A stretch of DNA of 64,000 bases from a virus (IMGVR_UViG_3300033076_000726:55240-119239); one strand, 5' to 3'; positions 5,208 through 64,000 are shown, numbered from the stretch's first letter. Notes: a model not told the origin generated them from the sequence alone. Numbers and translations are program-made.

Positions 5208-6092
5208 ATGAGAAAAACAATCACAACACTATCGCTAATGTTAGTGTTATTGTTTACTACAACATTGTCATATGGTCAATATAGTAGTAGTGCAATTCAG
5301 AAAGGTTCAGAACAATCCTTAAAAGTTCAAACGGATACACTCCATAATCAATTACAAGAAATTGTTGTTAGTGCAAAGAAAGTTCCTTTGATGACAAGAG
5401 TTGGTGAATACAATCAACCACTTTGGTCAACAATTCGAATGTTTCCATCTACACGTGTTTACATTATGAATCCACCAAATACAGTAATGTATGAGAAGTG
5501 GTTCGATATTAGACAACGTAGAAATGGTCCGGCACAAATCAGAATGAGAGATGAATTCACATTCGGTTTAGGTAAGAGACTTCAATTAGATGTATATTCA
5601 CACACAGTTTATGACGGTTATAATGGTGATAAGGAATTCAAATGGAGAGGATTTTCTTGGGAATTCAGATACGCATTAGCCGATTGGGGTAAACTATGGG
5701 GTAATCCAACAATCTATTGGGAAACCAAAATGTTAGATGGTCGTTGGGGAATTGAACCAAAACTATTGTTAGGAGATAGAGTAGGTAGAAATGGTGTGTG
5801 GGGATTCAATGCAATCTATGAAGGTAACTTAGGTGGTACTAAAGAAGAACAAGAACGTGAATATGCGTATACCGCATCATATGCAAAAATCCTAAACAAT
5901 GATTTAACATTAGGTGTTTCACATATGTTTAGATACAATGACTATGAAGGTGGTTCACAAGAATGGTATCTCGGACCATTAGTACAATACCGATTCACCA
6001 ACAAAGCATATTTGAATGTTGAACATATGCCAGGTTTAAATCAAGACGCAAAATTATCAAGAACCACAATTATATTCGGATGGAGATTTTAA
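5208..6092 (+). CDS. secreted outer-membrane beta-barrel-like protein
   Basis: ATG at 5208 gives MRKTITTLSLMLVLLFTTTLSYGQ (Bacteroidetes-type signal peptide). C-terminus ...TTIIFGWRF ends in an aromatic residue like the OMP beta-signal. The track start at 5133 is a TTG upstream. Confidence 0.5.
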   Translation: MRKTITTLSLMLVLLFTTTLSYGQYSSSAIQKGSEQSLKVQTDTLHNQLQEIVVSAKKVPLMTRVGEYNQPLWSTIRMFPSTRVYIMNPPNTVMYEKWFDIRQRRNGPAQIRMRDEFTFGLGKRLQLDVYSHTVYDGYNGDKEFKWRGFSWEFRYALADWGKLWGNPTIYWETKMLDGRWGIEPKLLLGDRVGRNGVWGFNAIYEGNLGGTKEEQEREYAYTASYAKILNNDLTLGVSHMFRYNDYEGGSQEWYLGPLVQYRFTNKAYLNVEHMPGLNQDAKLSRTTIIFGWRF

Positions 6093-7087
6093 TCAAAGGA
6101 CAAGAATTCCTTGTCTACTTAATATTCATTATGTTCGTAACTGGTATCCTCAAGGAAAGAGGATACCTTATGGACATCTTTAGACTTTTAGAACAGAAAG
6201 TTAAATCAAAGAAGATGGTGGTCTTCTTAGTATCGTTATTTGGTGGAGTGTTACCAATACCAGGTCGTGTTGCATTATCAGCATCTATGTTGAATAGTAT
6301 TGCACCAGTTGATAATAAAAAACGTAAGAAGTTTGGTATTATCGATTACCTTGCAACACACCATTATTATTTATGGTCACCCTTGGAGAAGACTGTTATC
6401 ATACCTATGGCTGTATTAGGATTAACTTATGTGCAGTTTATGTCTTATATCTGGCCGTTGTTATTGATTTCAGGATTATACATCAGTTATTATATTCTAT
6501 CATTAGATGAAGATGAAATTGATATTGAAGTTAAAGACGACCCAATCGATTGGAAGAACATCTATCTTGTAGTTATCCCATTTCTAGCTACGATTATGAT
6601 GTGTGTTTTCTTTACTGATTATTATTTTGGATTCTTTATGGGGTTCACATTATGGTTGGTATATTATTCCAATAGTTGGAAAAAATTACTCGATTATGTG
6701 AATTGGGAACTGATATGGATTGTGGCGTTAGTTATTATTTTAGGTAACTTAATAGGTTCATATTATAATGTAATTGAAGGGTATATTAAACAATATAATA
6801 AACCTGAATATATATTGATTGTATCTATGATATCATTTTTATCCTCGTTTATGTTGGGGTCTTCTGCAAAATATGCTAGTATCGTAAGTTTATTAACAAG
6901 TGTATTTGGAATGCAATATTTTGTTTTATTTTTCACTTTAGAATACTCCGCATATCTAATATCCCCATCACACAAATGTCTACCAATAGGTCAAAAATAT
7001 TTCCACACAGGTTTTATGACATATTTGAAGGCTTTGATAATATGGATATCAATAATGATGACATATGCACTATTAACAATAATATAA
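6080..7087 (+). CDS. polytopic integral membrane protein
   Basis: 335 aa with 8 or more hydrophobic segments and a LFGGVLPIPGRVALSAS motif. Confidence 0.6.
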   Translation: MEILIKGQEFLVYLIFIMFVTGILKERGYLMDIFRLLEQKVKSKKMVVFLVSLFGGVLPIPGRVALSASMLNSIAPVDNKKRKKFGIIDYLATHHYYLWSPLEKTVIIPMAVLGLTYVQFMSYIWPLLLISGLYISYYILSLDEDEIDIEVKDDPIDWKNIYLVVIPFLATIMMCVFFTDYYFGFFMGFTLWLVYYSNSWKKLLDYVNWELIWIVALVIILGNLIGSYYNVIEGYIKQYNKPEYILIVSMISFLSSFMLGSSAKYASIVSLLTSVFGMQYFVLFFTLEYSAYLISPSHKCLPIGQKYFHTGFMTYLKALIIWISIMMTYALLTII

Positions 7088-7101
7088 AATACATATAAAA
7101 T

Positions 7102-7563
7102 ATGAATAAGATAAATTTAACATTAGGAGAAATTAGACAATTAAACGATGAAATTAACGGACTCATCAATCAAGAAACAGGTAACGTTATTTTTGAAGGA
7201 TTTTTAAATCAAAAAATTTCAATTTTATTAAAATATGAATTAACCGATTTAAGTGAATTTCTCGAAAAGGAAAAAAATAAAACCGAAAAAATAAAAGATG
7301 AACTGATTTTAAAATACGGTGAGGAGGATGAAAAGGGAATAAAGTTAAACATGTGGTTAATTGATAAGGACGATGAGGGTAAAATATTATCCAAAACCAT
7401 AAATCCAAAATACGTTCAATTTGATGAAGAAATGGGTAAACTTATGTTGATGGAGAAAGAAATTGAATATCCTGATATCACTAAAGATGATTTAAAAAAC
7501 ATCGGAGAAACGAAAGACAATTATCAAGTGTTATTTAAACTAATAAAAAAAGGGACTAATTAA
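7102..7563 (+). CDS. hypothetical protein (Lys/Glu-rich)
   Basis: 153-aa ORF, last gene of the first rightward block, convergent with the minus-strand glycan island. Confidence 0.55.
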   Translation: MNKINLTLGEIRQLNDEINGLINQETGNVIFEGFLNQKISILLKYELTDLSEFLEKEKNKTEKIKDELILKYGEEDEKGIKLNMWLIDKDDEGKILSKTINPKYVQFDEEMGKLMLMEKEIEYPDITKDDLKNIGETKDNYQVLFKLIKKGTN

Positions 7564-8662
7564 GTCCCTTTCTTATTTCTATCATCATATTTCCTATTTG
7601 ATATTCACCCGGTTCATAATGAGGTATTGACAATCTTAAAGTGTATAAAAGATACACATCCTCATCTGTAAACGGTGCGGTTTCGTAAATCATCACATCT
7701 ACGGTATCTGTAAGGGTAAATTTGGACCTTAAATCATATCTGGTATTCTTCTGTTCATTCTCAATATAATCTTCAGGAATACGTCCTAAATTGATTTTAT
7801 CAAAGAATGGCTCAATCTCAAACAATCTATTGGAATTATTCGTAGATAATCCCATTGTGAATGTGTTATATTTAAATTCCTTATCTTCCCAATATCTTAA
7901 TTCATTAAATGACATAATAGGAATCCCCCACTTTCTTACGAAATTTCTATTGGATGATATTTCAATAATTTGTCTATTGTTCTTCATATCATCACTAAAT
8001 CTTGATGTCTGTGAAACAAAATGATAAGTGATAGCCGATTCACAAGTTTTTAATTCATATCCTTTTAGTTTTGCACGAATAAGAAAATCATCGTCTTCAC
8101 AAAAACAAGGTGCGAAACTAAATCCATCAAACATCCCAACATCCTCAAACATTTTCTTATATCCGCTCATAAAGAACACAGCACCGTCATATAGGGTATC
8201 TGAGTTTTTCCATTGTTGAACGTAATTGTTGAAATGATATGTGTTAAAATTTAAGAACGATGAACCTAAATCTAATAGAACTTTACCAGGTCTTTTGTGA
8301 CCGGCAAAAATTGGTGGTTCAATTGTTGTATAAGACAATAACATATTTGGTTGTAATAATCGTTCAATGGCTTCTAAAAAACCTTCACCGATAACCATAT
8401 CGTTATGTATCAAAACAAGCTTTTCAGTATCAACTAATTTAATACCCGCATTATATGTTTCAGAAAATGTTAATCTATCATCATCATGAATAAATGAAAG
8501 ATTATTGTCCTCCAAAGATTCTAACCATTCTTTTGTTCCATCTGTAGAACCACCACTACTTATAACTAATGGTTCGTTTGGATATAAATCACGAAGATAT
8601 CTATAACATTCTTTTGTTAGATTTAATTTATTATATACCGCTAATACAAATGTTATATTCAT
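7556..8662 (-). CDS. glycosyltransferase family 2
   Basis: N-terminal ITFVLAVYNKLNLTKECYRYL...SSGGSTDGT and LIHNDMVIGEGF fit a GT-A/GT2 fold. Confidence 0.75.
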   Translation of the reverse strand: MNITFVLAVYNKLNLTKECYRYLRDLYPNEPLVISSGGSTDGTKEWLESLEDNNLSFIHDDDRLTFSETYNAGIKLVDTEKLVLIHNDMVIGEGFLEAIERLLQPNMLLSYTTIEPPIFAGHKRPGKVLLDLGSSFLNFNTYHFNNYVQQWKNSDTLYDGAVFFMSGYKKMFEDVGMFDGFSFAPCFCEDDDFLIRAKLKGYELKTCESAITYHFVSQTSRFSDDMKNNRQIIEISSNRNFVRKWGIPIMSFNELRYWEDKEFKYNTFTMGLSTNNSNRLFEIEPFFDKINLGRIPEDYIENEQKNTRYDLRSKFTLTDTVDVMIYETAPFTDEDVYLLYTLRLSIPHYEPGEYQIGNMMIEIRKGLN

Positions 8663-9525
8663 TACTTATTATTCAAATATTCAACAATGTAATCTTCAAT
8701 GTTTTTAGTTGGTTCCCAATCTAATTGAAGTCTGGCTTCAGAACTATCACATAAAGTTATTAACGCCTCACCTGGTTTATCATCAGTAAAAACATATTCG
8801 TGTTTGAACATTTTAGCAATATCCTCGATTGAATAATTCTTACCTCTACCTAATTCGAATATATGTCCCCATTTATCATAAGATTTAATTCGAATAAGAC
8901 CATCCACAATATCTTCAATGTGTGTGAAATCCCTTCTCTTAGTTCCATCACCATAAATTGTTAATGGTTGACCGTCTTCAATTGCTTTTTCCCACTTACC
9001 GATTAAAGTACAATATCCACCCTCCTTCAAATGATGAGGGCCATATACATTATAGAAACGAGCAACACTTGCTTTCAAATTAAAATGTTGTTGATACATT
9101 TGAATAATCTCTTCACCAACATCTTTACTAAAAGTATATGGATTTTTAAATTTACCACTATGGTGTGAACTACTTCCCGCATATATTAGTGGTATGTTAT
9201 TTTGTACACAATAATCTGCAATGTATAAAGTACCATTTGCATTTGTTTGAAAATAACCAACTGGATTTTTAAAGGATGGTTGTATACGTGCAATTGCAGC
9301 TAAATGATATACCACATCAAAAGTTTGACCATCATCCAAATACGGGTTCCAATTTCTTTTTCTAAATGATATGTCTTCATTAACATATTTTGCACCCTCT
9401 ACGTGATTTGTTCTAAACCCCGTAAAATAGTTATCAACGGAAACAACATTGTGTCCTTCACTAACTAATCTTTTAATTAAATTGGTACCAACAAATCCAG
9501 CACCACCAGTCACTAATACGTTCAT
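8662..9525 (-). CDS. NAD-dependent sugar-nucleotide dehydratase/epimerase (SDR; UXS/4,6-dehydratase-like)
   Basis: VLVTGGAGFVGTNL Rossmann GxxGxxG, VDNYFTG, catalytic YTFSK (YxxxK). Confidence 0.8.
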   Translation of the reverse strand: MNVLVTGGAGFVGTNLIKRLVSEGHNVVSVDNYFTGFRTNHVEGAKYVNEDISFRKRNWNPYLDDGQTFDVVYHLAAIARIQPSFKNPVGYFQTNANGTLYIADYCVQNNIPLIYAGSSSHHSGKFKNPYTFSKDVGEEIIQMYQQHFNLKASVARFYNVYGPHHLKEGGYCTLIGKWEKAIEDGQPLTIYGDGTKRRDFTHIEDIVDGLIRIKSYDKWGHIFELGRGKNYSIEDIAKMFKHEYVFTDDKPGEALITLCDSSEARLQLDWEPTKNIEDYIVEYLNNK

Positions 9526-10646
9526 TATCTATTATTTACTATTTTAATTATTGATTCAATATCTTCATCCGTTAAACCTAAATGTAACGGTAAAGTTAAT
9601 TCATGTTTATCGTACCATTCTGCATTTACCAATCCACCCACTTTCTTAAATTCTCTAAATGGTTCATATTTGTCATTTCTTTTATAGTGCATACCACAGT
9701 AAACACCATTGTTTTTTAACAAATCATAAACCTCATCTCTGTCTTCAAAAAATAAAGGTAAAAAGTGTGACGAAGAAACTCTATCCGATTTATATTCAGG
9801 TAACAAAGCACCTTCGACACTATCTAAATAATATTGTGCAATTCTTCTACGACGCGTATTATTTTGATTGATTGTTTCTAAACCAATAATACCCATTGTA
9901 GATGCGATATCTGTTAAATGATACTTGTACCCAACTTCCTCAACTTCATAATCCCAATTGTATGTTGGTTTTTCAGTATTCAAATTACTTCTTGAAACAG
10001 TATCTTTATTGATACCTAACCATCTTAATTTATTTAAACGAGTATATAATTCTTCGTTGTTTGTTGAAATTGCACCACCATCCCCAACTGGTAAGTTTTT
10101 CACAGCTTGAAAACTCCAAACACAAATGTTATCAGTATCACCAATCATTTTACCATTGTACATTCCGCCAAATGCGTGTGCACAATCTTCAATAACAGGA
10201 ATACCATAACGATTGGCAATTTCATTGATACGAATCATATCACAACTATATCCACCGATATGAACAACGATAATCGCTTTAATTTCGTTATCTTCTTGTA
10301 ATGCTTGTTCAATAGAATCGGCACAAATATTACCGGTCATTTTTTCAACATCACAAAATACTGGAATATGACCTTCATACATAATTGCATGGTTTGTACT
10401 AACAAACGTATTTGATGTTGTAATGATTTTAGATTTAGGTGGTAAGTTTAAACACTTAACTGCTAAATGTAAACCAGCAGTTGCACTATTCAATGCAACA
10501 AAATACTTTGAACCGATATATTCGGATAATTTTGTTTCGAACTCCTTTGTTTTTGGACCCAATCCAATCCATCCTGAATTAAGAATTGGTCTTAATTCAT
10601 TTAGAATTCTTTCGGTGTCAATCATTGGTTTGAATACTTGTATCAT
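9525..10646 (-). CDS. DegT/DnrJ/EryC1/StrS-family PLP-dependent sugar aminotransferase
   Basis: ATAGLHLA, IIVVHIGGYSCDM, EDCAHAFGG, and SFQAVKNLPVGDGGAI (PLP-lysine region). Confidence 0.85.
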   Translation of the reverse strand: MIQVFKPMIDTERILNELRPILNSGWIGLGPKTKEFETKLSEYIGSKYFVALNSATAGLHLAVKCLNLPPKSKIITTSNTFVSTNHAIMYEGHIPVFCDVEKMTGNICADSIEQALQEDNEIKAIIVVHIGGYSCDMIRINEIANRYGIPVIEDCAHAFGGMYNGKMIGDTDNICVWSFQAVKNLPVGDGGAISTNNEELYTRLNKLRWLGINKDTVSRSNLNTEKPTYNWDYEVEEVGYKYHLTDIASTMGIIGLETINQNNTRRRRIAQYYLDSVEGALLPEYKSDRVSSSHFLPLFFEDRDEVYDLLKNNGVYCGMHYKRNDKYEPFREFKKVGGLVNAEWYDKHELTLPLHLGLTDEDIESIIKIVNNR

Positions 10647-11218
10647 AAATTTAAAAATTGTTGCGGTGTTATAAGATTTAATATTTCTTTTCTATTTTCA
10701 TCTAATAATTTAAAATCTAACACATCTGATTTTGGAAATAAGGTTTGTTTACCTTTACTAATAATACCAACACCGTGGTCAGTATCGACAACACACATAT
10801 TTAAATTTTCGTCTGTCATTCTGAATTTAACATATGCCTTCCATGTTGTCCCATTCCAAGTAGTTCCAAGAACATATTCTTCCACTTGATGTTCTTCTTT
10901 AATTGGACTACAGTCATGCATCACAATTGTTCCTCCATCACTTAAATGTTTTAATGAGTTGGTGATATCTTTTTCTACCTGATAATCAAGATGTAAACCA
11001 TCAATGAAGATAATATCATATTTTACGTTTTCATCTAATTGCTCAAAGAAATCGTCAGATGTAATTGGATAGTTACAACGACCCGCTGGGTCAACACCAT
11101 CCTTATGTTCAATATCAATTAGATTTAAATTGGATTCAGGGTCTCTAACTCCAATTTCTAAATACCGTTTATAATTATTTTTCTTGATTAAGTGATTGAT
11201 AATGTCTGTTCTTTTCAT
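10643..11218 (-). CDS. class I SAM-dependent methyltransferase (Methyltransf_24/TylF-like)
   Basis: YLEIGVRDPESN and DIIFIDGLHLDYQVEKD...LSDGGTIVMHDC. Confidence 0.7.
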   Translation of the reverse strand: MKRTDIINHLIKKNNYKRYLEIGVRDPESNLNLIDIEHKDGVDPAGRCNYPITSDDFFEQLDENVKYDIIFIDGLHLDYQVEKDITNSLKHLSDGGTIVMHDCSPIKEEHQVEEYVLGTTWNGTTWKAYVKFRMTDENLNMCVVDTDHGVGIISKGKQTLFPKSDVLDFKLLDENRKEILNLITPQQFLNL

Positions 11219-11729
11219 TCTTTTTTGCTTTTAAAATTATATCTGAATGTCCTCCATCCAAAGAATATGTTAGTTCGATAATTGTGAAATCTTCCTCAAA
11301 GAAATTTTGAATTTCTGTTAGACTCATTCGTACTTCATCTCCATAATTGTAGATGTTTGGTGATGAGGTATGTCCCTTCTCACATTTATCCGAACACATA
11401 GATAAAAATAAGAAACCTCCGTCACATAGTAAATCGGTAATTTGTTTTTTATAAAGATTTGGTTCAGGACAAAATTGAAATGAACTTATGGATGTCACAA
11501 AATTATATATCCCAATATGTTCTTCGGGGATAATGCCAGGTTCAATAACCACATCCACACCTTCTCCATCATATATGTCAAAACCAATTGCGTGTGATAT
11601 AATATTTTTAGTTGAACCGTTTATATTATACGCACCCACATCTGCAATTTTTGATGAATCGATACTAATCCTGTTTGATTTATACCAATCCTCAAGACGA
11701 TATTTTACATTATCATGCATATTGTTCAA
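11175..11729 (-). CDS. putative SAM-dependent methyltransferase
   Basis: IADVGAYNINGS (GxGxG-like), GVDVVIE, LLCDGGFLFLS; weaker match. Confidence 0.45.
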   Translation of the reverse strand: MNNMHDNVKYRLEDWYKSNRISIDSSKIADVGAYNINGSTKNIISHAIGFDIYDGEGVDVVIEPGIIPEEHIGIYNFVTSISSFQFCPEPNLYKKQITDLLCDGGFLFLSMCSDKCEKGHTSSPNIYNYGDEVRMSLTEIQNFFEEDFTIIELTYSLDGGHSDIILKAKKNEKNRHYQSLNQEK

Positions 11730-12624
11730 TAAGTTTTATCAGTTTTTCGGTTATAACTTTTGTACTTAAACTGTTCAAAATAAAAGGTTGAATATCTTTA
11801 AGATATCTTCTTCTGTTGTGGATGTTGTTTAATATATTAAGTGCGTTTTTTAATGATTGTGGGTCATTGGCAATCGCATAATCTAAATTGAATTCTTTTG
11901 CTAATTCTTCATAACTTCTTGATGAGTTAACAATACATGGTACACCACAAGCAATTGACGCAATCATTTTATTGTTACTCTTTACACCAGCATCTGAACC
12001 TAAATGAGATAATGCACATACATTTGATTTTCTTAAATCATCTACAAACGTATCAAGTCCCCATTGTGTTTTCGTAATCGGCGGTTGAACGTTTATGTTT
12101 CTTGCATCAGTTATTAAATTTAATTCAAATCTTGTTTCAATAATGTGAGGAACCATCCATTGTATCGACTGAGCATTTGGATAATTACCAAACCAAGCAA
12201 TTTTATTGGATACCTCAGGAGTTTCTAATATATCAACAACACCATAATCCAAACAATCCTCAATAACAATACATTCTTTACCAGTACCCAAAGAATCGAA
12301 ATGTTCTTTTCTACCCAAAGTATCTGTTGTAACAATATCGATATGTTCCATCATCTCTCTGAAATGTGGATTATTGTGTACAGGGTCATCGAAGTCAAAT
12401 ATTTTGAATCCTTCAAATGCTTTAACATATGTAAGTGTTTGGTTATCAATTCTTTTTTGAATGATTAGTATATCTGAATTGATATCAAAACCAATATTAC
12501 TTTCATACTTGTTAGAATGGTATCTGTTAATCGATTGATTTGGATAGAACAAACGTATTCTTGTTGATGCAAAGTTTTTTACATCATCATACATTGGTAT
12601 CCATGAAATTTTCTTAGTTGACAT
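11713..12624 (-). CDS. putative GT-B glycosyltransferase
   Basis: C-terminal SNNKMIASIACGVPCIVNSS resembles the GT4 donor-binding segment. Confidence 0.45.
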   Translation of the reverse strand: MSTKKISWIPMYDDVKNFASTRIRLFYPNQSINRYHSNKYESNIGFDINSDILIIQKRIDNQTLTYVKAFEGFKIFDFDDPVHNNPHFREMMEHIDIVTTDTLGRKEHFDSLGTGKECIVIEDCLDYGVVDILETPEVSNKIAWFGNYPNAQSIQWMVPHIIETRFELNLITDARNINVQPPITKTQWGLDTFVDDLRKSNVCALSHLGSDAGVKSNNKMIASIACGVPCIVNSSRSYEELAKEFNLDYAIANDPQSLKNALNILNNIHNRRRYLKDIQPFILNSLSTKVITEKLIKLIEQYA

Positions 12625-13210
12625 ATTCCCAATTAAATCTTAATCTTGGTGTTGACTCAACACCTTTTCTTTTTATTACTTCTAAATTATGTGTACTGTC
12701 TCTAACACCTTCACTTGAACTTTCCTTAGCGTATACTTTCGCTTTAATGTGTCTTAACTCATGTACTTCTAATAATCTTACACATTTATTATAGAAATGT
12801 ATATCATCATAACCATAGTTACCACAGAAGTCTTCATCATACCCACCAATCTTTTCAAAGTCATCTTTATGGATTACATAGATGTTTACACTATTAGTAT
12901 CTTCTCTACCTAAGTAATAAACACAACCACGTTTTAATTCTGTCTTTTCTAATTGTTCCATATTTTCTTTAGTCACTAAGTGGTCAATGTCTGCACATAA
13001 TATCCACCCATCGCTAATATGAAATCCTAAATTTCTTGCACCTGGTTGATTCCATTTAATGTCATCAGTTACCCTAACAACCTTAACACCATCCAATGGT
13101 CCTAATGGTTCCTTAGAACAATCATCAACAATAACAGTTTTCAATCCTTGTTCTAAAATACCTTGTATTCTTTCTCTTTGTCCGAAATATGTGTATAATA
13201 CTGTAATCAT
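12614..13210 (-). CDS. glycosyltransferase family 2-like (small)
   Basis: TVIVDDCSKEP and NQPGARNLGFHISDGWILCADIDHL (DxD-like). Confidence 0.55.
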   Translation of the reverse strand: MITVLYTYFGQRERIQGILEQGLKTVIVDDCSKEPLGPLDGVKVVRVTDDIKWNQPGARNLGFHISDGWILCADIDHLVTKENMEQLEKTELKRGCVYYLGREDTNSVNIYVIHKDDFEKIGGYDEDFCGNYGYDDIHFYNKCVRLLEVHELRHIKAKVYAKESSSEGVRDSTHNLEVIKRKGVESTPRLRFNWEYVN

Positions 13211-13213
13211 AAA

Positions 13214-13912
13214 TTATCTTAAATGTTTTCCTTGGTCATCAAAATACTCATTACCACCACTATCCCCTTTAACGGCATATAAGTTTGCATAACCTTTTAA
13301 TCTTTTTCTTTTTAATTTCTTATCTAATTTCCATATACAATATGGAAAACTAATTTGGTCTCTTGAACTAAATCTACATATTTGTTCCCACCACATTAAC
13401 TGTAATTGTTTAATTACATCTGTGGTTTTTACTATGAATGTCGAAAGTTCGAACAACCCAAATAATTCTGGCATCCCTTTAGATTTGTAGAACGCGAATT
13501 GATTATCAATATTTTGTTGATAGTCCAATCTCCAATGAACACATGCACCCATCTCTTGATATAAACAAGTTCTATCAGGATGTTTAAATAAAAAGATATC
13601 GGTATCGGCACCATACTCATCTATAATCAATTGAGGGTCTTTTTTTAATTGGTGGTTACCATCTTCCCAAATAATATATTCATATTGAGGGAACATTATT
13701 GACGATAAAATTTTATATGGTTTGGCATTTCTTCTATCAGTAAGTCCATCAATGGATGAAAATTCTAATACACTTCTTTGTTCCCAAACTTTAACTGTCT
13801 CGTCTTTCTTATCCACATATGCAATATAATCACAATTGTCAAAAACCTGTGGTGGGTCTAACAATTTATCTTTTCCTCCGGTGATTGCGGTTAATACTAA
13901 GAATTTTTTCAT
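13214..13912 (-). CDS. putative glycosyltransferase (TOD1/DUF616-like)
   Basis: N-terminal FLVLTAITGGKDKLLDP resembles the DUF616 'IYTAIFGxYDxL' start; tentative. Confidence 0.35.
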   Translation of the reverse strand: MKKFLVLTAITGGKDKLLDPPQVFDNCDYIAYVDKKDETVKVWEQRSVLEFSSIDGLTDRRNAKPYKILSSIMFPQYEYIIWEDGNHQLKKDPQLIIDEYGADTDIFLFKHPDRTCLYQEMGACVHWRLDYQQNIDNQFAFYKSKGMPELFGLFELSTFIVKTTDVIKQLQLMWWEQICRFSSRDQISFPYCIWKLDKKLKRKRLKGYANLYAVKGDSGGNEYFDDQGKHLR

Positions 13913-14619
13913 ATTTTTTCGTTTCTACAAAGTACAAGTAATTTATCATTATCCCATCCTGGGGAATATCTATTTTTATGTTCGGTCACAATAAAAGTCA
14001 TTGAATGGAAATACGACTCTAACGGTTCAAAATTCTTTGCGAAATCGTCTTCATTGGTACTTCTAAAAATATCCTCAACAATTAAATAACCACCTGGTTT
14101 TATGTAACGATATGCGTGATATGCGAATAATGTGTTATGAGGTAAATCATGTATCATATCATCAATTATCACATCAAATCCACCACCAGTCGATTGTAAA
14201 CACTCTTCAATTGACTCGGATTTATTAACATCCATGAAATGATATGTAGTGTTTTCTAAATTATCACTAATTGCTTTATTCATGTATGTTTGGTCATATT
14301 CAAATCCATGTAACTCGGCATATGGGAAGTATTCCCTCCAACACTTCATTGACATATTTTCGGCAATACCGCCTTCAGCAAATTTAATTGGTTTGTATCG
14401 TAATGACATAAATAACATATCATATACCGCCATGTATGGATGTCTATGTCCATCATGAACAACATATGGAGATTTATCTGTTGGATATTTTACACCCAAC
14501 TTACATAAATCAGTAATTGAATCTGATGAATCGATTATTAGTTTATTTATTATCATATTGTTCCGTAATATTTGTTTTGTTTTTCTTGTCTTTGTATTGT
14601 TTTGTGATGTTGAATACAA
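13909..14619 (-). CDS. class I SAM-dependent methyltransferase
   Basis: GGGFDVIIDDMIHD...YIKPGGYLIVEDIF (Methyltransf_24-like). Confidence 0.6.
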   Translation of the reverse strand: MYSTSQNNTKTRKTKQILRNNMIINKLIIDSSDSITDLCKLGVKYPTDKSPYVVHDGHRHPYMAVYDMLFMSLRYKPIKFAEGGIAENMSMKCWREYFPYAELHGFEYDQTYMNKAISDNLENTTYHFMDVNKSESIEECLQSTGGGFDVIIDDMIHDLPHNTLFAYHAYRYIKPGGYLIVEDIFRSTNEDDFAKNFEPLESYFHSMTFIVTEHKNRYSPGWDNDKLLVLCRNEKI

Positions 14620-15173
14620 TATTCTTCGTCATCAGGTAAGGAGGCAAATTTACTACCGCCTATAATCCTTTCATGAACTTTACCATACCATCTAAGATGT
14701 TTCTTATAAATTCTACCTTGTCTATCGGGAAAATTTATCCAACCCTTTTCATTTATGTTCCATCTCCAAGTGTCGATATGTTCTTGTGTTATCCCATCTA
14801 CTGTGTTAATACGGGGTACAAAGATTAAGTCTACGTTTGGGTTCATTTCAAGAATGTTATGTAAATTCTCAACCATATATTGACTAATCATCTCATCTGC
14901 GTCAATTTGATAGATATAATCACCAGTACAATAACCGTTTAATATGTTTTTAAAATCGGCAAAATTATCATTCCAATCAAAACATCTCCAAGTTTGAACA
15001 TTTGGTAGTTTATTATACGGTAATAGAAAATTTAATACGTCAGGGTCTCCATTTGTGTTATCATATAGAATCACTATTTCGTCCTGAGGTCTCTTGTAAT
15101 CCAATAAAAACGGGACTAATCTCCTTATTTCCGTCAATTCGTTGCAAATTGTTATTGCGTAACTTATCTTCAT
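14553..15173 (-). CDS. glycosyltransferase family 2
   Basis: MKISYAITICNELTEIRRL...EIVILYDNTNGD, then QIDADE (DxD). Confidence 0.65.
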   Translation of the reverse strand: MKISYAITICNELTEIRRLVPFLLDYKRPQDEIVILYDNTNGDPDVLNFLLPYNKLPNVQTWRCFDWNDNFADFKNILNGYCTGDYIYQIDADEMISQYMVENLHNILEMNPNVDLIFVPRINTVDGITQEHIDTWRWNINEKGWINFPDRQGRIYKKHLRWYGKVHERIIGGSKFASLPDDEEYCIQHHKTIQRQEKQNKYYGTI

Positions 15174-58597: not shown

Positions 58598-58909
58598 ATG
58601 AAATTAGGAGAATTCATCAAACAATTTTCTCACAATAATATTGTGAGATTACATTACAAAATTAAAGGTGGACATCAATGTGTCTTAGAAAGTTGGGATG
58701 ATGTTTCGATGGACCACGAGATTGTGAATGGTAAAGGTAAGAATCGTCACTACATTAACAATGAGGTATTAGGTTTAGTAGGTATAAACTTTCGAAGTGG
58801 TGACACACATTACCCTGAAGCTATCAATATCGTAATTGAGGAATTGGAAAACCAACCATTGATTGAAGAAATAAAAGAAGAACAAATACAATACAGTGAA
58901 GCCATTTAA
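58598..58909 (+). CDS. hypothetical protein
   Basis: 103-aa ORF. Confidence 0.5.
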   Translation: MKLGEFIKQFSHNNIVRLHYKIKGGHQCVLESWDDVSMDHEIVNGKGKNRHYINNEVLGLVGINFRSGDTHYPEAINIVIEELENQPLIEEIKEEQIQYSEAI

Positions 58910-59396
58910 ATTTTTTCAGAAGGGGACACTCGATGACCCGCAGATGTTAAATGATTTAACTCAAGCAACCGCATCGTTTAATGAGGACACTCCTGGTGGT
59001 CATATGTATCGAAGAAGATTATATCACACAGACCGTGCCACATATGATAGATTGTATCGAGGTACACATATGGAGGCGGATAGATATTATTTTGACAGGG
59101 AGTTAGGACGTTTTGAAACTATTCAACCAACTCAATTAACCAGACAAAGAATCGAAGACCAAGAGCACCAAGAAAGATTGAGATTGATTAGAAGAATAAA
59201 TGGTGGAGAAAGAATTGTACCATTCTTCACCGGCACACCAATAGCAACAACAACAAATCCAAAATGGTGGATGAAGATAAAGATATTCTTTCAAGAACAG
59301 TTTTGGTTTAAAGACCCAGCAGGTGTAATTGCAATTGCCGGAGGATTAACAATATTTGTAATTCTAACGATAGCAAAAATATTAAGTGTGTGGTAA
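58896..59396 (+). CDS. MKPFKFFQ-family protein with C-terminal TM
   Basis: N-terminus MKPFKFFQKG; C-terminal AGVIAIAGGLTIFVILTIAKIL anchor. Confidence 0.55.
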   Translation: MKPFKFFQKGTLDDPQMLNDLTQATASFNEDTPGGHMYRRRLYHTDRATYDRLYRGTHMEADRYYFDRELGRFETIQPTQLTRQRIEDQEHQERLRLIRRINGGERIVPFFTGTPIATTTNPKWWMKIKIFFQEQFWFKDPAGVIAIAGGLTIFVILTIAKILSVW

Positions 59397-59692
59397 AAGA
59401 TTTTAAATTTTTTCAAGATAACAATCAGGATGAGATAACACCACACAATGGTGCATCGTGGATGTGGGGAAGACTTGAGAATCTTGACCAATACAATTAC
59501 GATATTGCATTAGATTATCATTTTGGTATTCATTCATTTCTAAATCAATTTCCTGATGGACATATTGCAATAATCTTATCAATTACCGGTCCTGATGGTT
59601 TTGTACATAGTATTGATAATGATGGAATTGGTTGGAGATTTGATATATTAGTGGATTTGATTGCAATTCAATGGATAAGATTTAGACCTTAA
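59390..59692 (+). CDS. MKPFKFFQ-family protein
   Basis: MVKDFKFFQDN N-terminus. Confidence 0.5.
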   Translation: MVKDFKFFQDNNQDEITPHNGASWMWGRLENLDQYNYDIALDYHFGIHSFLNQFPDGHIAIILSITGPDGFVHSIDNDGIGWRFDILVDLIAIQWIRFRP

Positions 59693-59695
59693 TAT

Positions 59696-59950
59696 ATGAA
59701 ACCATTTAAATTTTTTCAAAATAAACCCGAGAGAGTATTCACCGACTACATGGATAGGATGGATGATTATTTCTTGGGTGGAATAAGGGAAGAACCTACT
59801 CCCATCCCATACGAACAATATCAAGGTTGGGATGCACATCATAACAATCTCCCACCAGGTCAATGTCCATATGATATTGGAACAATAGAACGTGAACATT
59901 GGATGACGGGTTGGAGTAATAGGGAAAACTGGGAACAACAACCCCAATAG
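59696..59950 (+). CDS. MKPFKFFQ-family protein
   Basis: MKPFKFFQNKPE N-terminus. Confidence 0.5.
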   Translation: MKPFKFFQNKPERVFTDYMDRMDDYFLGGIREEPTPIPYEQYQGWDAHHNNLPPGQCPYDIGTIEREHWMTGWSNRENWEQQPQ

Positions 59951-59958
59951 TATAAAGA

Positions 59959-60696
59959 ATGGCAAAGATTGAAATAGATTATGAAAAGAAGTACGGATAT
60001 CTAAAGATAATTCGTGAAGTTCCGACACCTGAGGGTCAGAAGTACACGGGTAGGTTGATTTTGTGTAAATGTGATTGTGGGGTGGAGAAGGTAATCAAAC
60101 TTACTAATGTGGTAAATGGTGCAACAACATCTTGTGGTTGTCAGAAATTTAAAAATTCCAAGGAGAATGGATTAAAGAGTAGGAGAACATTTTTAAATGT
60201 TGGGGATGTATATGGTAGATTAAAGGTGAAAAGGGAGGTTGAGGGTATTAGATACAATAATCAAAAAAGGGACCATAGACAATATGAGTGTGAATGTACA
60301 TGTGGGAACATATGTGTGGTTCAGATGAGACATTTAACGGCGGGAAAGACCACATCATGTGGTTGTTATAGAATTGAGAGGAGTTTGGAGACAATTACAA
60401 AGCATGATATGCATAAGACTTCCGAGTATAAGGCTTGGCAATCATTAAAACAGAGATGTTATAATCCCAAGACCATACATTTTAAGGATTATGGTGGAAG
60501 AGGACTAACGGTATGTGATAGGTGGTTGGAATCATTTGAGAATTTTTTTGAGGATATGGGTTTCAAACCCACTCCGACGCATAGTATTGATAGGATTGAT
60601 AACCATAAATTGATTGACGCCTATTCCAAAGATAATTGTAGATGGGCAACAAAGAAGGAACAGGTTGATAATAGAAGGATAAACGAGTCCAAATAA
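59959..60696 (+). CDS. HNH (HNH_3-type) endonuclease with duplicated Cys-rich repeats
   Basis: Two repeats (LILCKCDCG...TSCGC and YECECTCG...TSCGC), then HSIDRIDNHK...DNCRWATKKEQVDNRR (HNH_3-like). Confidence 0.6.
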   Translation: MAKIEIDYEKKYGYLKIIREVPTPEGQKYTGRLILCKCDCGVEKVIKLTNVVNGATTSCGCQKFKNSKENGLKSRRTFLNVGDVYGRLKVKREVEGIRYNNQKRDHRQYECECTCGNICVVQMRHLTAGKTTSCGCYRIERSLETITKHDMHKTSEYKAWQSLKQRCYNPKTIHFKDYGGRGLTVCDRWLESFENFFEDMGFKPTPTHSIDRIDNHKLIDAYSKDNCRWATKKEQVDNRRINESK

Positions 60697-61040: not shown

Positions 61041-61300
61041 CCACATCTTCCTCTTCTTCTTTTACGAATACGTAGGATTGTACGGAGGGTAATCCACTAT
61101 ATTGACATAGACTATCGTCACCTACCAATAGTAATTCATCTTTATCGAAGTATACTCCATCACTATGCATGTCTGCTAACGGTCTATAAGATATTCCTTT
61201 CATGTGTTTATTTGTTTAGACCACAAAGTTAAACAATAGATTTGACATAAAAAAATTTAAATTATTTGGGATATATCGGAATATATTGTATATTTGGTAT

Positions 61301-61627
61301 ATGAAACCGTTTAAGTTCTTAAAGAATCCGATTGCAACCGCTCACGATGGTGGTTATATATACGCGGGGGAAACGTTCTATACAATGAATAAGGAGGAAT
61401 TTTCATCAATTACGGGGAGAATGATTCCCAAATATACTATTGTAAGAAGATATGTTGGAAAGAAGTTTGCAATCGTATTCAAACCTGACTATGATTCATT
61501 ATGGTATTTCCGTAGTGAACAGAACGCGGAATATCTAAGGGATATATGGGAAAGACAGGATAGAATGACAGAAGGCGGGGAGATATTCAACAATCAATCA
61601 GATATAACAATAACATTCAATAGATGA
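61301..61627 (+). CDS. MKPFKFFQ-family protein
   Basis: ATG at 61301 gives MKPFKFLKNP. Confidence 0.5.
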   Translation: MKPFKFLKNPIATAHDGGYIYAGETFYTMNKEEFSSITGRMIPKYTIVRRYVGKKFAIVFKPDYDSLWYFRSEQNAEYLRDIWERQDRMTEGGEIFNNQSDITITFNR

Positions 61628-61915: not shown

Positions 61916-62248
61916 ATGAACATAGTAGACTTCATAGATGAACTAAGAAATACTGACAGGTATATTCATCACATCTACACAAAAGGAGGTTGTTATAAGT
62001 TTCACCTCCTACTAAGTAAGATGTATAAAGGTTGTATACCATATACGAATGGGAATCATATTATCACAAGGTATAAGGGAAAATATTATGACATATATGG
62101 TGAAGTGGATAATCAAGATGGATTCAGAAAACTATCTACTATGGAAAAACCACAGGTTGAGAAATGGTCCTTCCATATGAATAATCTTCTTGTACTAAAG
62201 GATTGTCCCCATTGTGATGAACCGATTATTATAGAGAACTTATCATGA
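61916..62248 (+). CDS. hypothetical protein
   Basis: Internal ATG avoids a 77-nt overlap with the upstream gene. Confidence 0.45.
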   Translation: MNIVDFIDELRNTDRYIHHIYTKGGCYKFHLLLSKMYKGCIPYTNGNHIITRYKGKYYDIYGEVDNQDGFRKLSTMEKPQVEKWSFHMNNLLVLKDCPHCDEPIIIENLS

Positions 62249-62694
62249 AAGTATATTATTGTTTTGAATGTGACTCTAAGGAAAATATACATCATCATCA
62301 TGTGATTCCACAGAGTAAAGGGGGAACTAAAACCATACCCTTATGTGAAGTTTGTCACGGTAAAGTACATGGGATTGATTTTACTAACCATGGAATATTG
62401 ACAAGAGAAGGATTGAAACGAGCCAAAGATAGAGGAGTTAAATTAGGTTCACCTCAGAATCTAACAAAGGTTGCCACATTAAAGGGTGTTGAATCTATTA
62501 AAAGGAATCGTATTGAGAATGAAAATTGGATATTCTGTAAGAACTTTATAGATGAATTTGTAAAGGTAAATGGATATCTAAATTATACCCAGATAAGTAA
62601 TCTCTTAAATGAACAAGGACATAAGACAAGACATAATAAGAAGTTTACTCCGAGTATAGTAAGAAGAGTACATCTAAATTTTAATACACCCTGA
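62245..62694 (+). CDS. HNH homing-endonuclease-like protein with resolvase-like DNA-binding tail
   Basis: YYCFECDSKENIHHHHVIPQSKGGTKTIPLCEVCHGKVHG (HNH core); C-terminal LKRAKDRGVKLGSP resembles the serine-recombinase C-terminal segment. Confidence 0.7.
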   Translation: MKVYYCFECDSKENIHHHHVIPQSKGGTKTIPLCEVCHGKVHGIDFTNHGILTREGLKRAKDRGVKLGSPQNLTKVATLKGVESIKRNRIENENWIFCKNFIDEFVKVNGYLNYTQISNLLNEQGHKTRHNKKFTPSIVRRVHLNFNTP

Positions 62695-62724
62695 AGGGAG
62701 GGAGTCGAAAGACTCCCGACCGAC
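62690..62724. repeat. left arm of long-range inverted repeat closing the GC-rich island
   Basis: cctgaaggga-[gggagtc-gaaa-gactccc hairpin]-cgaccgac; partners at 63355-63364 and 63333-63340. Confidence 0.6.
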
Positions 62725-63332
62725 AATACCGGTTCCAGAACCCCATAATAAAACCCCTCTAATATAGTCAGAATCCACACTATTTTCCCCCTAAAATTAG
62801 ACCGAATTTTTTCCTGTTTTTAGTACAAAAACCTGTACTTTTTTCTGACACTTTTATCGTGATCGAAAAATATATACTAAATTATCTTTTTTTATCTAAA
62901 ATTTGGGATACCAGTATTACAATCCACAAATTCCCACTTTTCCCCACGGGCTAGGAATGTATTACGGGATTGACCCTTGCGTGAATCACGACCCATTTTA
63001 TTTCCGGTACCAGAATATAACCATTTTAGTGTAATACGGACCTCCCTACACTTCGTTTCGGTCGGTCCTTCATCCCGTTTATATTATAGTATTATGTAAT
63101 ACATATTATACCATATAACGTGTCATACATTATAGGTCCTAACCCCCCTGAAGGGGACTCGACAGAGTCCCCGTAATTCTTGCCAGACAAATATGGGTAA
63201 TACACTATGGTCATAATATTGTGATATTGTCTGGCAACTGTACGGGATGAAGGGGGTCCGTTAGGACCCCCGTATAATGGGTTATATGTATTACATAGTT
63301 TACTGGATTAAGTCCACAAAAGAAGTGATTGA

Positions 63333-63364
63333 GTCGGTCGGACTCTACGAGTCCTCCCTTCAGG
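63333..63364. repeat. right arm of long-range inverted repeat
   Basis: gtcggtcg-[ggactc-tac-gagtcc]-tcccttcagg, reverse complement of the left-arm segments. Confidence 0.6.
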
Positions 63365-63705
63365 ATGGTAATACATCCCTGAATCTTAGAATAGTTATAT
63401 GGTTTTTAGAAAAACCCTTAGGGAATTTTCGACGGGGACTTAGAATAGTACAATATATACCCCTGTCATACAGTCCCACATGTATGGTGTAATACCCACG
63501 TTCCACGTGGAACCTTCACCACGGGATGAAGGGACGACCCGAAGGGGAGTCCCGTAATCAGTTAATCCAGTAAAGTTTGTGGACCTTCTTCCTCCCTAAG
63601 AACAAGGTAAGGAATATCTCTGACATGTACAAATAAGAAGGGTCCCCGTACAGCTAACATGAGCAACTGTAGGAGACCCCGAAGTCTTATTGGAAGTAGT
63701 ACTTA

Positions 63706-63888
63706 CTATCGACCTAACAATTCGTTACGGAATGAAACCGCTTTACGTTTGTTAGAGAAGTTCTTAGAGTACTTCTTACCGTTGATACTAACACGTACAC
63801 GGTATGATGAACCGTCGTGGTAGATGTTGTCAGATACAGGAACATAAGTGGTTACAGTCTGACGGCGTGTTGATGATTGTTTTTTCAT
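63706..63888 (-). CDS. AP2/Arm-like DNA-binding domain protein (short; possibly endonuclease-associated or a remnant)
   Basis: YRVRVSINGKKYSKNFSNKRKAVSFRNELL resembles AP2/integrase-arm DNA-binding domains; abuts the repeat island. Confidence 0.4.
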   Translation of the reverse strand: MKKQSSTRRQTVTTYVPVSDNIYHDGSSYRVRVSINGKKYSKNFSNKRKAVSFRNELLGR

Positions 63889-64000
63889 GTGTTTTATTAT
63901 TTTATACTAAAATATAGTAAATAATATCCACAATAAAAAATCTGCCGGCAAAATATTTTTACATGTCCCCTAATCCAGTAAACTTCGGAGTCCTGATCAC

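Follow-up and report, generated by a model that had tools for sequence, protein, structure and literature searches.

A non-coding island at positions 62690-63705 of a 64,000-nt stretch of viral DNA (IMGVR_UViG_3300033076_000726:55240-119239, referred to below as the window) appears to be a cis-acting DNA locus, most likely the replication origin of the phage joined to a centromere-like or maintenance site. The probability of this reading is put at about one half. The layout speaks for an origin: a DnaA box is accompanied by phased weak boxes, the AT-rich region is bent, iteron-like repeats are present and opposed hairpins occupy complementary strands. An initial annotation of the window had described the same segment as a GC-rich, highly structured island free of open reading frames (ORFs), and had proposed either a large ornate noncoding RNA (ncRNA) or a nested element resembling a miniature inverted-repeat transposable element (MITE). 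The description of a selected, structure-forming and non-coding element is upheld by the present analysis, whereas neither of the two proposed identities withstood testing.

The gap without a credible ORF spans 62695-63705 (1,011 nt) and is bordered by the stop of a plus-strand HNH gene encoding 149 amino acids (62694) and by the stop of a minus-strand gene encoding 60 amino acids (63706). Its ORF-free character was confirmed, as the longest ORF in the island (71 amino acids) has no homologue and is not conserved. A hidden gene was also considered and rejected, because the small ORFs of the central core are not conserved in relatives (a minus-strand ORF of 34 amino acids is broken by a stop codon in the related locus L029) and an ORF of ~295 amino acids that relatives carry has left no detectable remnant in the window. 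The GC content of the island is 41.2%, compared with 31.8% for the whole window; this excess is owing to the flanks (43-47%) and not to the core (33.7%).

Homologous islands were found by motif and protein searches of IMG/VR and metagenomes in ~56 distinct contigs from related uncultured jumbo phages, including viral contigs of 180-333 kb. Every one of them adjoins the same gene for a 60-amino-acid protein and lies between the same converging gene blocks, and the island occupies the same syntenic place in all relatives, with identities of 44-100%. No match to the island or to 20 kb of the window was found among GenBank phages by BLASTN, nor to two of the proteins by tblastn. A pattern scan of 185,579 bacterial and archaeal genomes (one genome per species) returned chance matches only and no copy of the island, and a bacterial copy, a prophage or an attP site was rejected on this basis.

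The conserved core and associated boxes

The core is an AT-rich segment of 255 nt (62785-63036), which was recovered with nhmmer from IMG/VR and metagenome contigs at E-values of 1e-10 to 1e-68. It is the sole segment that can be aligned in all relatives (45 unique sequences, with a mean identity of 62% and a minimum of 44%). Consensus folding of the 45 sequences with RNAalifold gave three pairs and -3 kcal/mol on each strand. As the core is alignable yet yields only three consensus pairs on either strand, it is conserved as sequence and not as an RNA fold. From left to right, it contains CCTGTTTTTA (62813-62822), the near-invariant TTATCGTGATC (62854-62864), TATAC/TATC boxes at 62873, 62883 and 62893, the DnaA-box-like CAATCCACA (62920-62928), CCAC at 62924, 62934 and 62944, and GGGATTGACCCTTGCGTGAA (62966-62985); GGGGATTGACCC..GAA is invariant. 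The A/T tracts and TATC boxes are phased at 10-12 nt, and the periodicity of the A/T tracts has a power of 0.50 compared with 0.11 in controls.

The DnaA box is a signal of the family. A perfect box is present in 26 of the 45 cores (58%), and 39 (87%) have one with no more than a single mismatch; the corresponding figures for random windows of this genome are 1.5% and 14%. In most relatives the box is followed by two CCCAC boxes at an exact spacing of 10 nt. One set of lineages has the box segment inverted and retains the consensus 9-mer in the opposite orientation (TTATCCACA versus TGTGGATAA). DnaA boxes beside an AT-rich unwinding region, as at known origins, are therefore found at the family level; clustering of DnaA boxes within the window alone was not significant, the signal being their conservation across relatives.

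On the left side, C-rich iteron-like direct repeats (ACCCCATAAT, ACCCCTCTAAT and TCCCCCTAAAAT; 62740-62800) are all located on the plus strand, which accounts for a GC skew of -0.36 over this segment. In relatives, (T)TACCCC(T)AA is repeated two to six times at the corresponding position left of the core and in the same orientation.

To the right of the core lies a perfect palindrome resembling parS, GTTCCACGTGGAAC (63500-63513), which is the sole exact match in the window; 0.09 matches would be expected there by chance with one mismatch allowed. It is identical to the central 14 bp of the chromosomal parS consensus sequences that have been published (PMC7022226), and by sequence it belongs with the chromosomal parS sites, which are 16-bp palindromes of the TGTTNCACGTGAAACA family (consensus list in PMC7022226). 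Among the relatives, 21 of 56 (~40%) have a parS, once each, invariably inside the island and nowhere else in 366 kb, with TGTTCCACGTGAAAC, TGTTTCACGTGAAAC and TGTTCCACGTGGAACA as variants. A parS nearby would fit an origin-proximal centromere.

Ten GTMATAC(A) boxes are distributed over 62914-63495, with plus-strand starts at 63031, 63096, 63122, 63197, 63368, 63465 and 63489 and minus-strand copies at 62914, 62959 and 63288. All copies of GTAATAC and GTCATAC in the window sit in the island, whereas 9-10 and 4-7 copies, respectively, would be expected outside it. The right edge of the core marks the beginning of the array in relatives. Neither sequence occurs in 138.7 kb of left flanks from 56 loci, where ~30 copies would be expected; the island itself has 5.7 copies per kb and the 156 kb of right flanks have 2.0, and the strand bias is 4:1. 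The switch falls exactly at the right end of the core (window 1-62690 versus 62914-63495, and 6000-15052 of the related locus L002). The boxes have no extended sequence context and occur in all reading frames. A promoter function of GTATTAC was rejected in view of the lack of an extended consensus, the irregular distances to start codons and the occurrence in all reading frames. This domain-wide exclusion and enrichment is a separate signal worth pursuing.

Hairpin modules and their reading as DNA

The GC-rich flanks are built from a single family of modules of ~35-40 nt, each of which consists of TGAA, a G-rich stem of 7-9 bp, a short loop, the complementary arm and a 3' flank of GTAAT/GTATAAT or GACCGAC. 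Tandem G/A mismatches are present in modules of types 2 and 3. The left module (62690-62724, plus strand) is of type 2, CC TGAA GG-GA-GGGAGTC gaaa GACTCCC-GA-CC GAC, and folds as DNA at -8.7 kcal/mol (z = -3.0). Its inverted partner, also of type 2, is located on the minus strand at 63330-63364 (CC TGAA GG-GA-GGACTC gta GAGTCC-GA-CC GAC); the stems of the two copies differ (GGACTC versus GGGAGTC), which indicates that they are maintained independently. The right module adjoining the core, GGGA TGAA GGACC [gaccgaaacgaagtgtaggga] GGTCC GT, is on the minus strand at 63037-63078. It is followed by two type 1 modules on the plus strand, namely CC TGAA GGGGACTC gaca GAGTCCCC GTAAT at 63147-63177 (-9.3 kcal/mol, z = -3.3, with covariation in the family) and CGGGA TGAA GGGGGTCC gtta GGACCCCC GTATAAT at 63243-63278 (-10.3 kcal/mol, z = -3.9). 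These two modules, together with a long hairpin between TTGCCAGACAA and TTGTCTGGCAA (63180-63237; repeat I20; -10.6 kcal/mol, z = -3.7) that is kept in relatives with a G-C to A-T exchange, are enclosed in a unit (63093-63297) bounded by the 25-nt inverted repeat I1, the arms of which (63093-63117 and 63273-63297) are 80% complementary. A type 3 module, ACGGGA TGAA GGGAC ga CC cgaa GG gga GTCCC GTAAT, is found on the plus strand at 63521-63558 (-7.9 kcal/mol), with an inner mini-hairpin flanked by G/A mismatches; the version of the relatives is GGGCC-GA-CC-GAA-GG-GA-GGCCC.

All of the inverted repeats and hairpins on which the initial annotation was built were recovered by reading of the sequence and with a repeat finder. 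These are the exactly complementary arms 62690-62699 (cctgaaggga) and 63355-63364, the reverse complements 62717-62724 (cgaccgac) and 63333-63340, the hairpins gggagtc-gaaa-gactccc (62700-62717) and ggactc-tac-gagtcc (63340-63354), the inner pairs 63067-63077/63243-63253 (I16) and 63181-63190/63227-63236 (I20), and the hairpins at 63153-63172 and 63252-63271. Their interpretation changes. The supposed closing helices of one global fold are the left module (62690-62724, plus) and its inverted copy (63330-63364, minus). The pair 63093-63106/63284-63297 is genuine as part of the I1 arms, but the pseudoknot derived from it dissolves into inverted copies of a repeat containing GTAATAC. Of the tetraloops, only GAAA is GNRA; GACA and GTTA are not. 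Two short motifs recur: CGGGATGAAGGG occurs three times, in this region only (0.14 expected), and TAATCCAGTAAA exactly three times.

The arrangement of the modules around the core is largely preserved. The module to the left of the core is on the plus strand in all 34 relatives in which one was detected, and of 52 relatives, 37 have the nearest module to the right on the minus strand, 12 have it on the plus strand and three have none detected; the search pattern needs TGAAGG, and some apparent exceptions in orientation carry CGAAGG and escape it. The core is therefore bracketed by modules on complementary strands. Modules were found at this locus only, and not at other operon ends within 72 kb of this genome. 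They are present in both orientations and nested inside inverted repeats, and their number and order differ between relatives.

Comparison with shuffled sequences, as suggested by the initial annotation, gave a far better folding energy for 62686-63370 (685 nt), with z = -7.9 on the plus strand and -5.6 on the minus strand. Strong values on both strands reveal dense palindromes but do not establish an RNA; palindromic DNA is expected to behave in this manner. Among 116 distinct modules, 114 have perfect Watson-Crick stems and none has a G·T pair, with one mismatch allowed in the search. In an alignment of 30 modules, which was selected for perfect stems, two-sided changes affected five of seven stem positions (38 double changes), and no pair showed a one-sided change. 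The covariation that was to have supported an RNA is thus present in the stems, but without G·T pairs or one-sided changes, and the core, the part of the island that was folded as a unit across relatives, has no consensus RNA fold. The asymmetry of G·T and A·C pairs was also tried as an indicator of the transcribed strand and was uninformative, because the stems lack mismatches.

The loops are equally characteristic. Loops of the GNA or GNNA type make up 104 of 116, frequently as part of CCGAAGG, and are confined to the TGAA-bearing strand. The GNA loops comprise GAA (52), GTA (13), GGA (4) and GCA (4), and the GNNA loops comprise GTTA (10), GACA (7), GAAA (6) and others, most tetraloops being other than GNRA. 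The closing pair is C·G in 150 of 156 loops of 3-4 nt, and the folding energy of the modules, calculated with DNA parameters, is -8 to -10 kcal/mol. Among triloops, only GNA gives extraordinarily stable DNA mini-hairpins (PMC13037366), the stability of which depends on the closing pair (PMC3201870). Stable mini-hairpins have been reported at the origins of G4, St-1 and alpha3 (GCGAAAGC and GCGTTAGC), at ssiA of RSF1010 (CCGAAGG) and in N4 promoters (GCGGAGC) (PMC13037366). We read the modules as strand-specific DNA hairpins rather than RNA, because paired stems without G·T, GNA/GNNA loops and C·G closure match this repertoire of DNA mini-hairpins.

Searches for known RNAs gave no support for the other possibility. 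Rfam cmscan found nothing at the gathering score in the whole window, nor anything near threshold for GOLLD, ROOL, HEARO/OMEGA or group I/II introns. At E-values up to 10, the region 62400-64000 yielded chance-level matches only (15-20 bits against thresholds of 34-75 bits). No tRNA or tmRNA was found by ARAGORN. The host-type promoter box TAnnTTTG does not occur inside the island, although it is present upstream of neighbouring genes.

The proposed origin and competing explanations

In the proposed mechanism, binding at the DnaA box, perhaps together with a phage initiator, would help to open the intrinsically bent AT-rich core; candidate sites for such an initiator are the C-rich direct repeats, TTATCGTGATC and GGGGATTGACCC. 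Unwinding would expose the two bracketing modules on complementary strands, each of which could fold into a very stable DNA mini-hairpin with single-stranded flanks of TGAA (5') and GTAAT or GACCGAC (3'). A primase or a hairpin-reading polymerase may then recognize these hairpins, and synthesis would proceed outward on both sides, in parallel with ssiA/ssiB of RSF1010; we infer the outward direction because the geometry of RSF1010 is applied here. The extra modules on the right, the co-oriented GTMATACA boxes and parS would be accessory sites, which may bind the neighbouring 60-amino-acid DNA-binding protein and host ParB. The island would also house the terminator of the leftward operon.

The closest analogue of the island is oriV of the IncQ plasmid RSF1010/R1162, which likewise has two inverted repeats of ~40 nt on complementary strands beside an AT-rich segment. 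In RSF1010, unwinding exposes ssiA and ssiB, which are 40-nt inverted repeats; the primase attaches to the conserved 5' flank, and synthesis begins just 3' of the hairpin (PMC8567376). The island shares with these sites strand-specific hairpins of ~40 nt that lie on complementary strands, have conserved flanks and are capped by GNA/GNNA loops. The RSF1010 hairpins are similarly capped by a mini-hairpin of the CCGAAGG type (PMC8567376, PMC13037366), with iterons nearby. However, the island has no sequence homology to RSF1010, no RepA/B'/C genes were seen, and DnaA boxes and parS are present; furthermore, its genome is that of a phage of >200 kb rather than an 8.7-kb plasmid, and its function as an origin is putative.

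Other origins share individual features. The complementary-strand origins of G4, St-1 and alpha3 are GC-rich hairpins with C·G-closed GAAA or GTTA loops (GCGAAAGC, GCGTTAGC) that act as DNA at the priming site (PMC13037366), and GTTA and GAAA loops are frequent in the modules. These phages package a single-stranded genome and use the host primase, whereas the double-stranded island must first unwind or extrude. Bacterial oriC and DnaA-dependent plasmid origins also have a TTATCCACA box followed by weaker phased boxes with an easily melted AT-rich region alongside, and a parS of the TGTTNCACGTGAAACA family within 1 kb is a further likeness to oriC (PMC7022226). Unlike oriC, the island has only one strong box, which is degenerate in the window, its parS is facultative and there is no adjacent dnaA or parAB. 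The extrachromosomal prophages of cluster A mycobacteriophages have a non-coding origin of 0.4-0.5 kb by parABS, which is necessary and sufficient without a Rep gene (PMC7157519). The island is likewise a non-coding phage segment linked to a partition site, but the cluster A origins are transcribed and thought to be RNA-primed, belong to temperate actinophages of ~50 kb and share no sequence homology with it.

A number of observations weigh against an origin. The cumulative GC skew of the window is maximal at the island, which is terminus-like rather than origin-like. Five near-identical contigs extend the window, and all of their genes to the right of the island point leftward; the island therefore lies between converging gene blocks, and forks leaving it would meet transcription head-on. 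Genes for an initiator, a primase, ParA or ParB were not found in the window or in the available flanks, and no ParA/ParB signature motif, including GERRxRA of ParB, was detected in the available sequence. In addition, parS is facultative (~40% of relatives), islands carry 5-7 modules where RSF1010 has two, the DnaA box of the window itself is weak (CAATCCACA matches at seven of nine positions) and DnaA-box-like 9-mers are common throughout this AT-rich genome.

The alternative that retains the most plausibility, although it is considered unlikely, is that the island is another DNA-level cis site, such as a partition or centromere site that serves as a platform for protein loading, a site for packaging (pac) or for the processing of concatemers, a terminus of replication, a site of dimer resolution, or a decoy for host DnaA and ParB. 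The convergent genes and the skew maximum, the parS palindrome, the dense co-oriented GTMATAC array beginning exactly at the edge of the core and the tightly linked small DNA-binding protein would all suit such a site. So would the many metagenomic contigs that end in or near the island, six of them within ~10 nt just left of TTATCGTGATC (window ~62840-62850). However, no terminase, recombinase or Par gene is nearby, and it is above all at initiation sites that a DnaA box by a phased AT-rich region is found with flanking strand-specific mini-hairpins. Because they are scattered over ~10 nt at the border of conserved and variable sequence, the contig ends are probably forks of the assembly graph, and physical genome ends are less likely.

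It is improbable that the modules are promoters of the N4 type, at which a virion RNA polymerase would read single-stranded or supercoiled DNA, or that they form a transcription-control hub of terminators or barriers between the converging operons. Phage N4 hairpin stems are 5-7 bp long. The early promoters of N4 are strand-specific DNA mini-hairpins with conserved flanks, a 5-bp stem and a 3-nt GGA or GAA loop (PMC13037366), and thus resemble the modules. In addition, the left module lies directly after the last plus-strand gene, and the island contains one canonical minus-strand terminator block. This block (63381-63458) is an intrinsic terminator in relatives, AACCCTT...AAGGGTT followed by a T run; it is 80-83% identical there, stands directly after the ~295-amino-acid ORF and ends the leftward operon, whereas the copy in the window is weakened and folds weakly. 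A terminator scan returned two weak terminator-like sites, compared with 1.6 expected. The N4 hairpins have 5-bp stems in one orientation upstream of early genes, whereas those of the island have 7-9 bp and occur in both orientations with no gene downstream of any module, so that the N4 geometry would fire outward into antisense or non-coding DNA. The modules are not intrinsic terminators, because they are followed by GTAAT or GACCGAC and not by U tracts; a terminator would need neither the conserved 5' TGAA flank nor the invariant G...A loop, and within 72 kb the modules are confined to this locus, other operon ends being free of them.

A nest of selfish GC-rich palindromic mini-elements, similar to MITEs, repetitive extragenic palindromes or GC clusters and inserted in a tolerant gap with an incidental core, is regarded as having little likelihood. 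The variable number and order of modules between relatives, their nesting in inverted repeats and the hot spot for mobile endonuclease genes at this site speak for it. The flanking modules also resemble terminal inverted repeats (62690-62724 versus 63330-63364, and 63037-63078), and this part of the original MITE proposal stands. Its other parts do not: neither the island nor a module has a second copy in 62.6 kb plus 8.7 kb of this genome (single-copy in 72 kb) or in the flanks of relatives, the sequences ACAC and GATG on either side of the element show no target-site duplication, and no transposase was found. Every relative has the element at the syntenic site, without presence/absence polymorphism, and its position and plus/minus bracketing of the core are kept across lineages that are only 44-60% identical. 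The flanking hairpins differ in stem within one genome, and thus are not homogenized transposon ends or products of recent transposition.

The weakest explanation, a large structured ncRNA as first proposed or several small RNAs, is very improbable: it can draw on the significant folding energy, the covarying stems, an A·C mismatch of the long hairpin in one relative that equals G·U on the minus strand, the existence of RNA-based phage origins (PMC7157519) and a size range and phage location beside an HNH gene shared with GOLLD, ROOL, HEARO and group I/II introns, but it is opposed by the lack of any Rfam covariance-model match, tRNA, conserved global fold, consensus fold of the core on either strand or promoter box inside the island, by 116 stems without G·U and with DNA-type GNA/GNNA loops, by modules on both strands and by long-range 'helices' that are inverted repeat copies.

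Neighbouring genes and significance

The window phage is large and carries auxiliary genes for radical SAM enzymes, glycosyltransferases, thymidylate synthase, methyltransferases and PcfJ-like proteins. The left border of the island is formed by a gene for a free-standing homing endonuclease with HNH and resolvase-type helix-turn-helix domains (62245-62694, plus strand; matches to Pfam HNH/HNH_5 and PHROG HNH), the TGA stop of which (62692-62694) falls within the left hairpin module. A second free-standing HNH endonuclease gene is located 2 kb upstream of the island (59959-60696; PHROG 374, E = 1e-65). In relatives the left border is occupied by HNH endonucleases of 462 and 368 amino acids or by GIY-YIG or LAGLIDADG endonucleases, and in one case by a GNAT gene. 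The border genes lie at 5222-5674 in L026, 5984-7372 in L029, 6418-7524 in L037, 11863-13146 in L127 and 8769-10016 in L124. With at least five unrelated homing-endonuclease genes, including three HNH types, at the left border of different relatives, this border reads as a homing-endonuclease hot spot beside constrained sequence, as would be expected of such a target. The HNH gene is an interchangeable neighbour of the island, not its partner.

On the right, the gene for the basic 60-amino-acid protein (63706-63888, minus strand), with a predicted arm-type or AP2-like DNA-binding fold, is invariably linked to the island. The protein is represented by 190 protein clusters, of which the best 120 are all at least 69% identical. 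The AlphaFold model, with a predicted local distance difference test (pLDDT) score of 83, consists of a three-strand sheet plus a helix. The best Foldseek matches were the integrase arm-binding domains 3jtz and 3rmp, followed by AP2 domains, at weak E-values of 0.2-0.8. The protein is a candidate trans-acting factor for the island.

In many relatives a conserved ORF of ~240-300 amino acids without a family match separates the 60-amino-acid gene from the island (4210-5094 in L029, 4210-5106 in L031, 4065-5105 in L033, 4322-5032 in L036 and 4352-5251 in L037). Four small neighbouring ORFs of the window (58896-59396, 59390-59692, 59696-59950 and 61286-61627) have the N-terminal motif MKPFKFFQ (or MKPFKFLK or VKDFKFFQ) in common and resemble a local paralogue family.

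An operator half-site, TTTACTGGATTA, is located on the minus strand at 63563-63574, with further copies at 63299-63310 (plus reading) and 63971-63982. Operator-like sites of the form TTTACTGGA-N4-13-TCCAGTAAA, a palindrome in which this motif often appears, precede many of the minus-strand genes on the right side by 60-180 nt, for example at 9821, 10719, 10788/10808, 11685, 11758/11769, 13724/13735 and 14870/14890 in L002, and TTTACTG occurs 15 times in the 9 kb to the right of the island compared with none in 43.7 kb to the left. Some operator-like sites are followed by -7 boxes of the Bacteroidota type (TAnnTTTG), which hint at the host phylum.

Variation was also noted within and around the island. 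The contigs that terminate in or beside it include L125, L132, L139, L144, L148 and L150. Two contigs that are otherwise near-identical to the window, L001 and L004, differ by an 11-nt insertion with clustered substitutions at ~63431-63452 and a 5-nt replacement at 63579-63584, which mark locally hypervariable spots inside the island.

A more specific form of the origin reading is possible, although it is rather doubtful, in which the island is a 'mini-chromosome' cassette. Here, a DnaA box of the chromosomal type and parS would be joined to hairpin priming signals of the type of IncQ plasmids and single-stranded DNA phages, at the border of two genome domains in which GTMATAC is totally absent or in ~9-fold excess. 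If this were true, the phage would recruit DnaA and ParB/SMC of its host, perhaps to be carried like a plasmid or to position its genome, and the small arm-type DNA-binding protein would read a domain-wide DNA code.

Beyond this locus, the absence of G·U pairs combined with C·G-closed GNA/GNNA loops gives a simple, sequence-only criterion by which functional hairpins of DNA can be told apart from those of RNA when genomes are scanned. To our knowledge, a replication origin is known for hardly any jumbo phage and for hardly any phage described solely from metagenomes. The island offers a testable origin candidate, which could be cloned and probed directly. If confirmed, it would link large double-stranded DNA phages to the priming logic of IncQ plasmids and single-stranded DNA phages, and would represent a phage that uses the chromosome-initiation and segregation proteins of its host.

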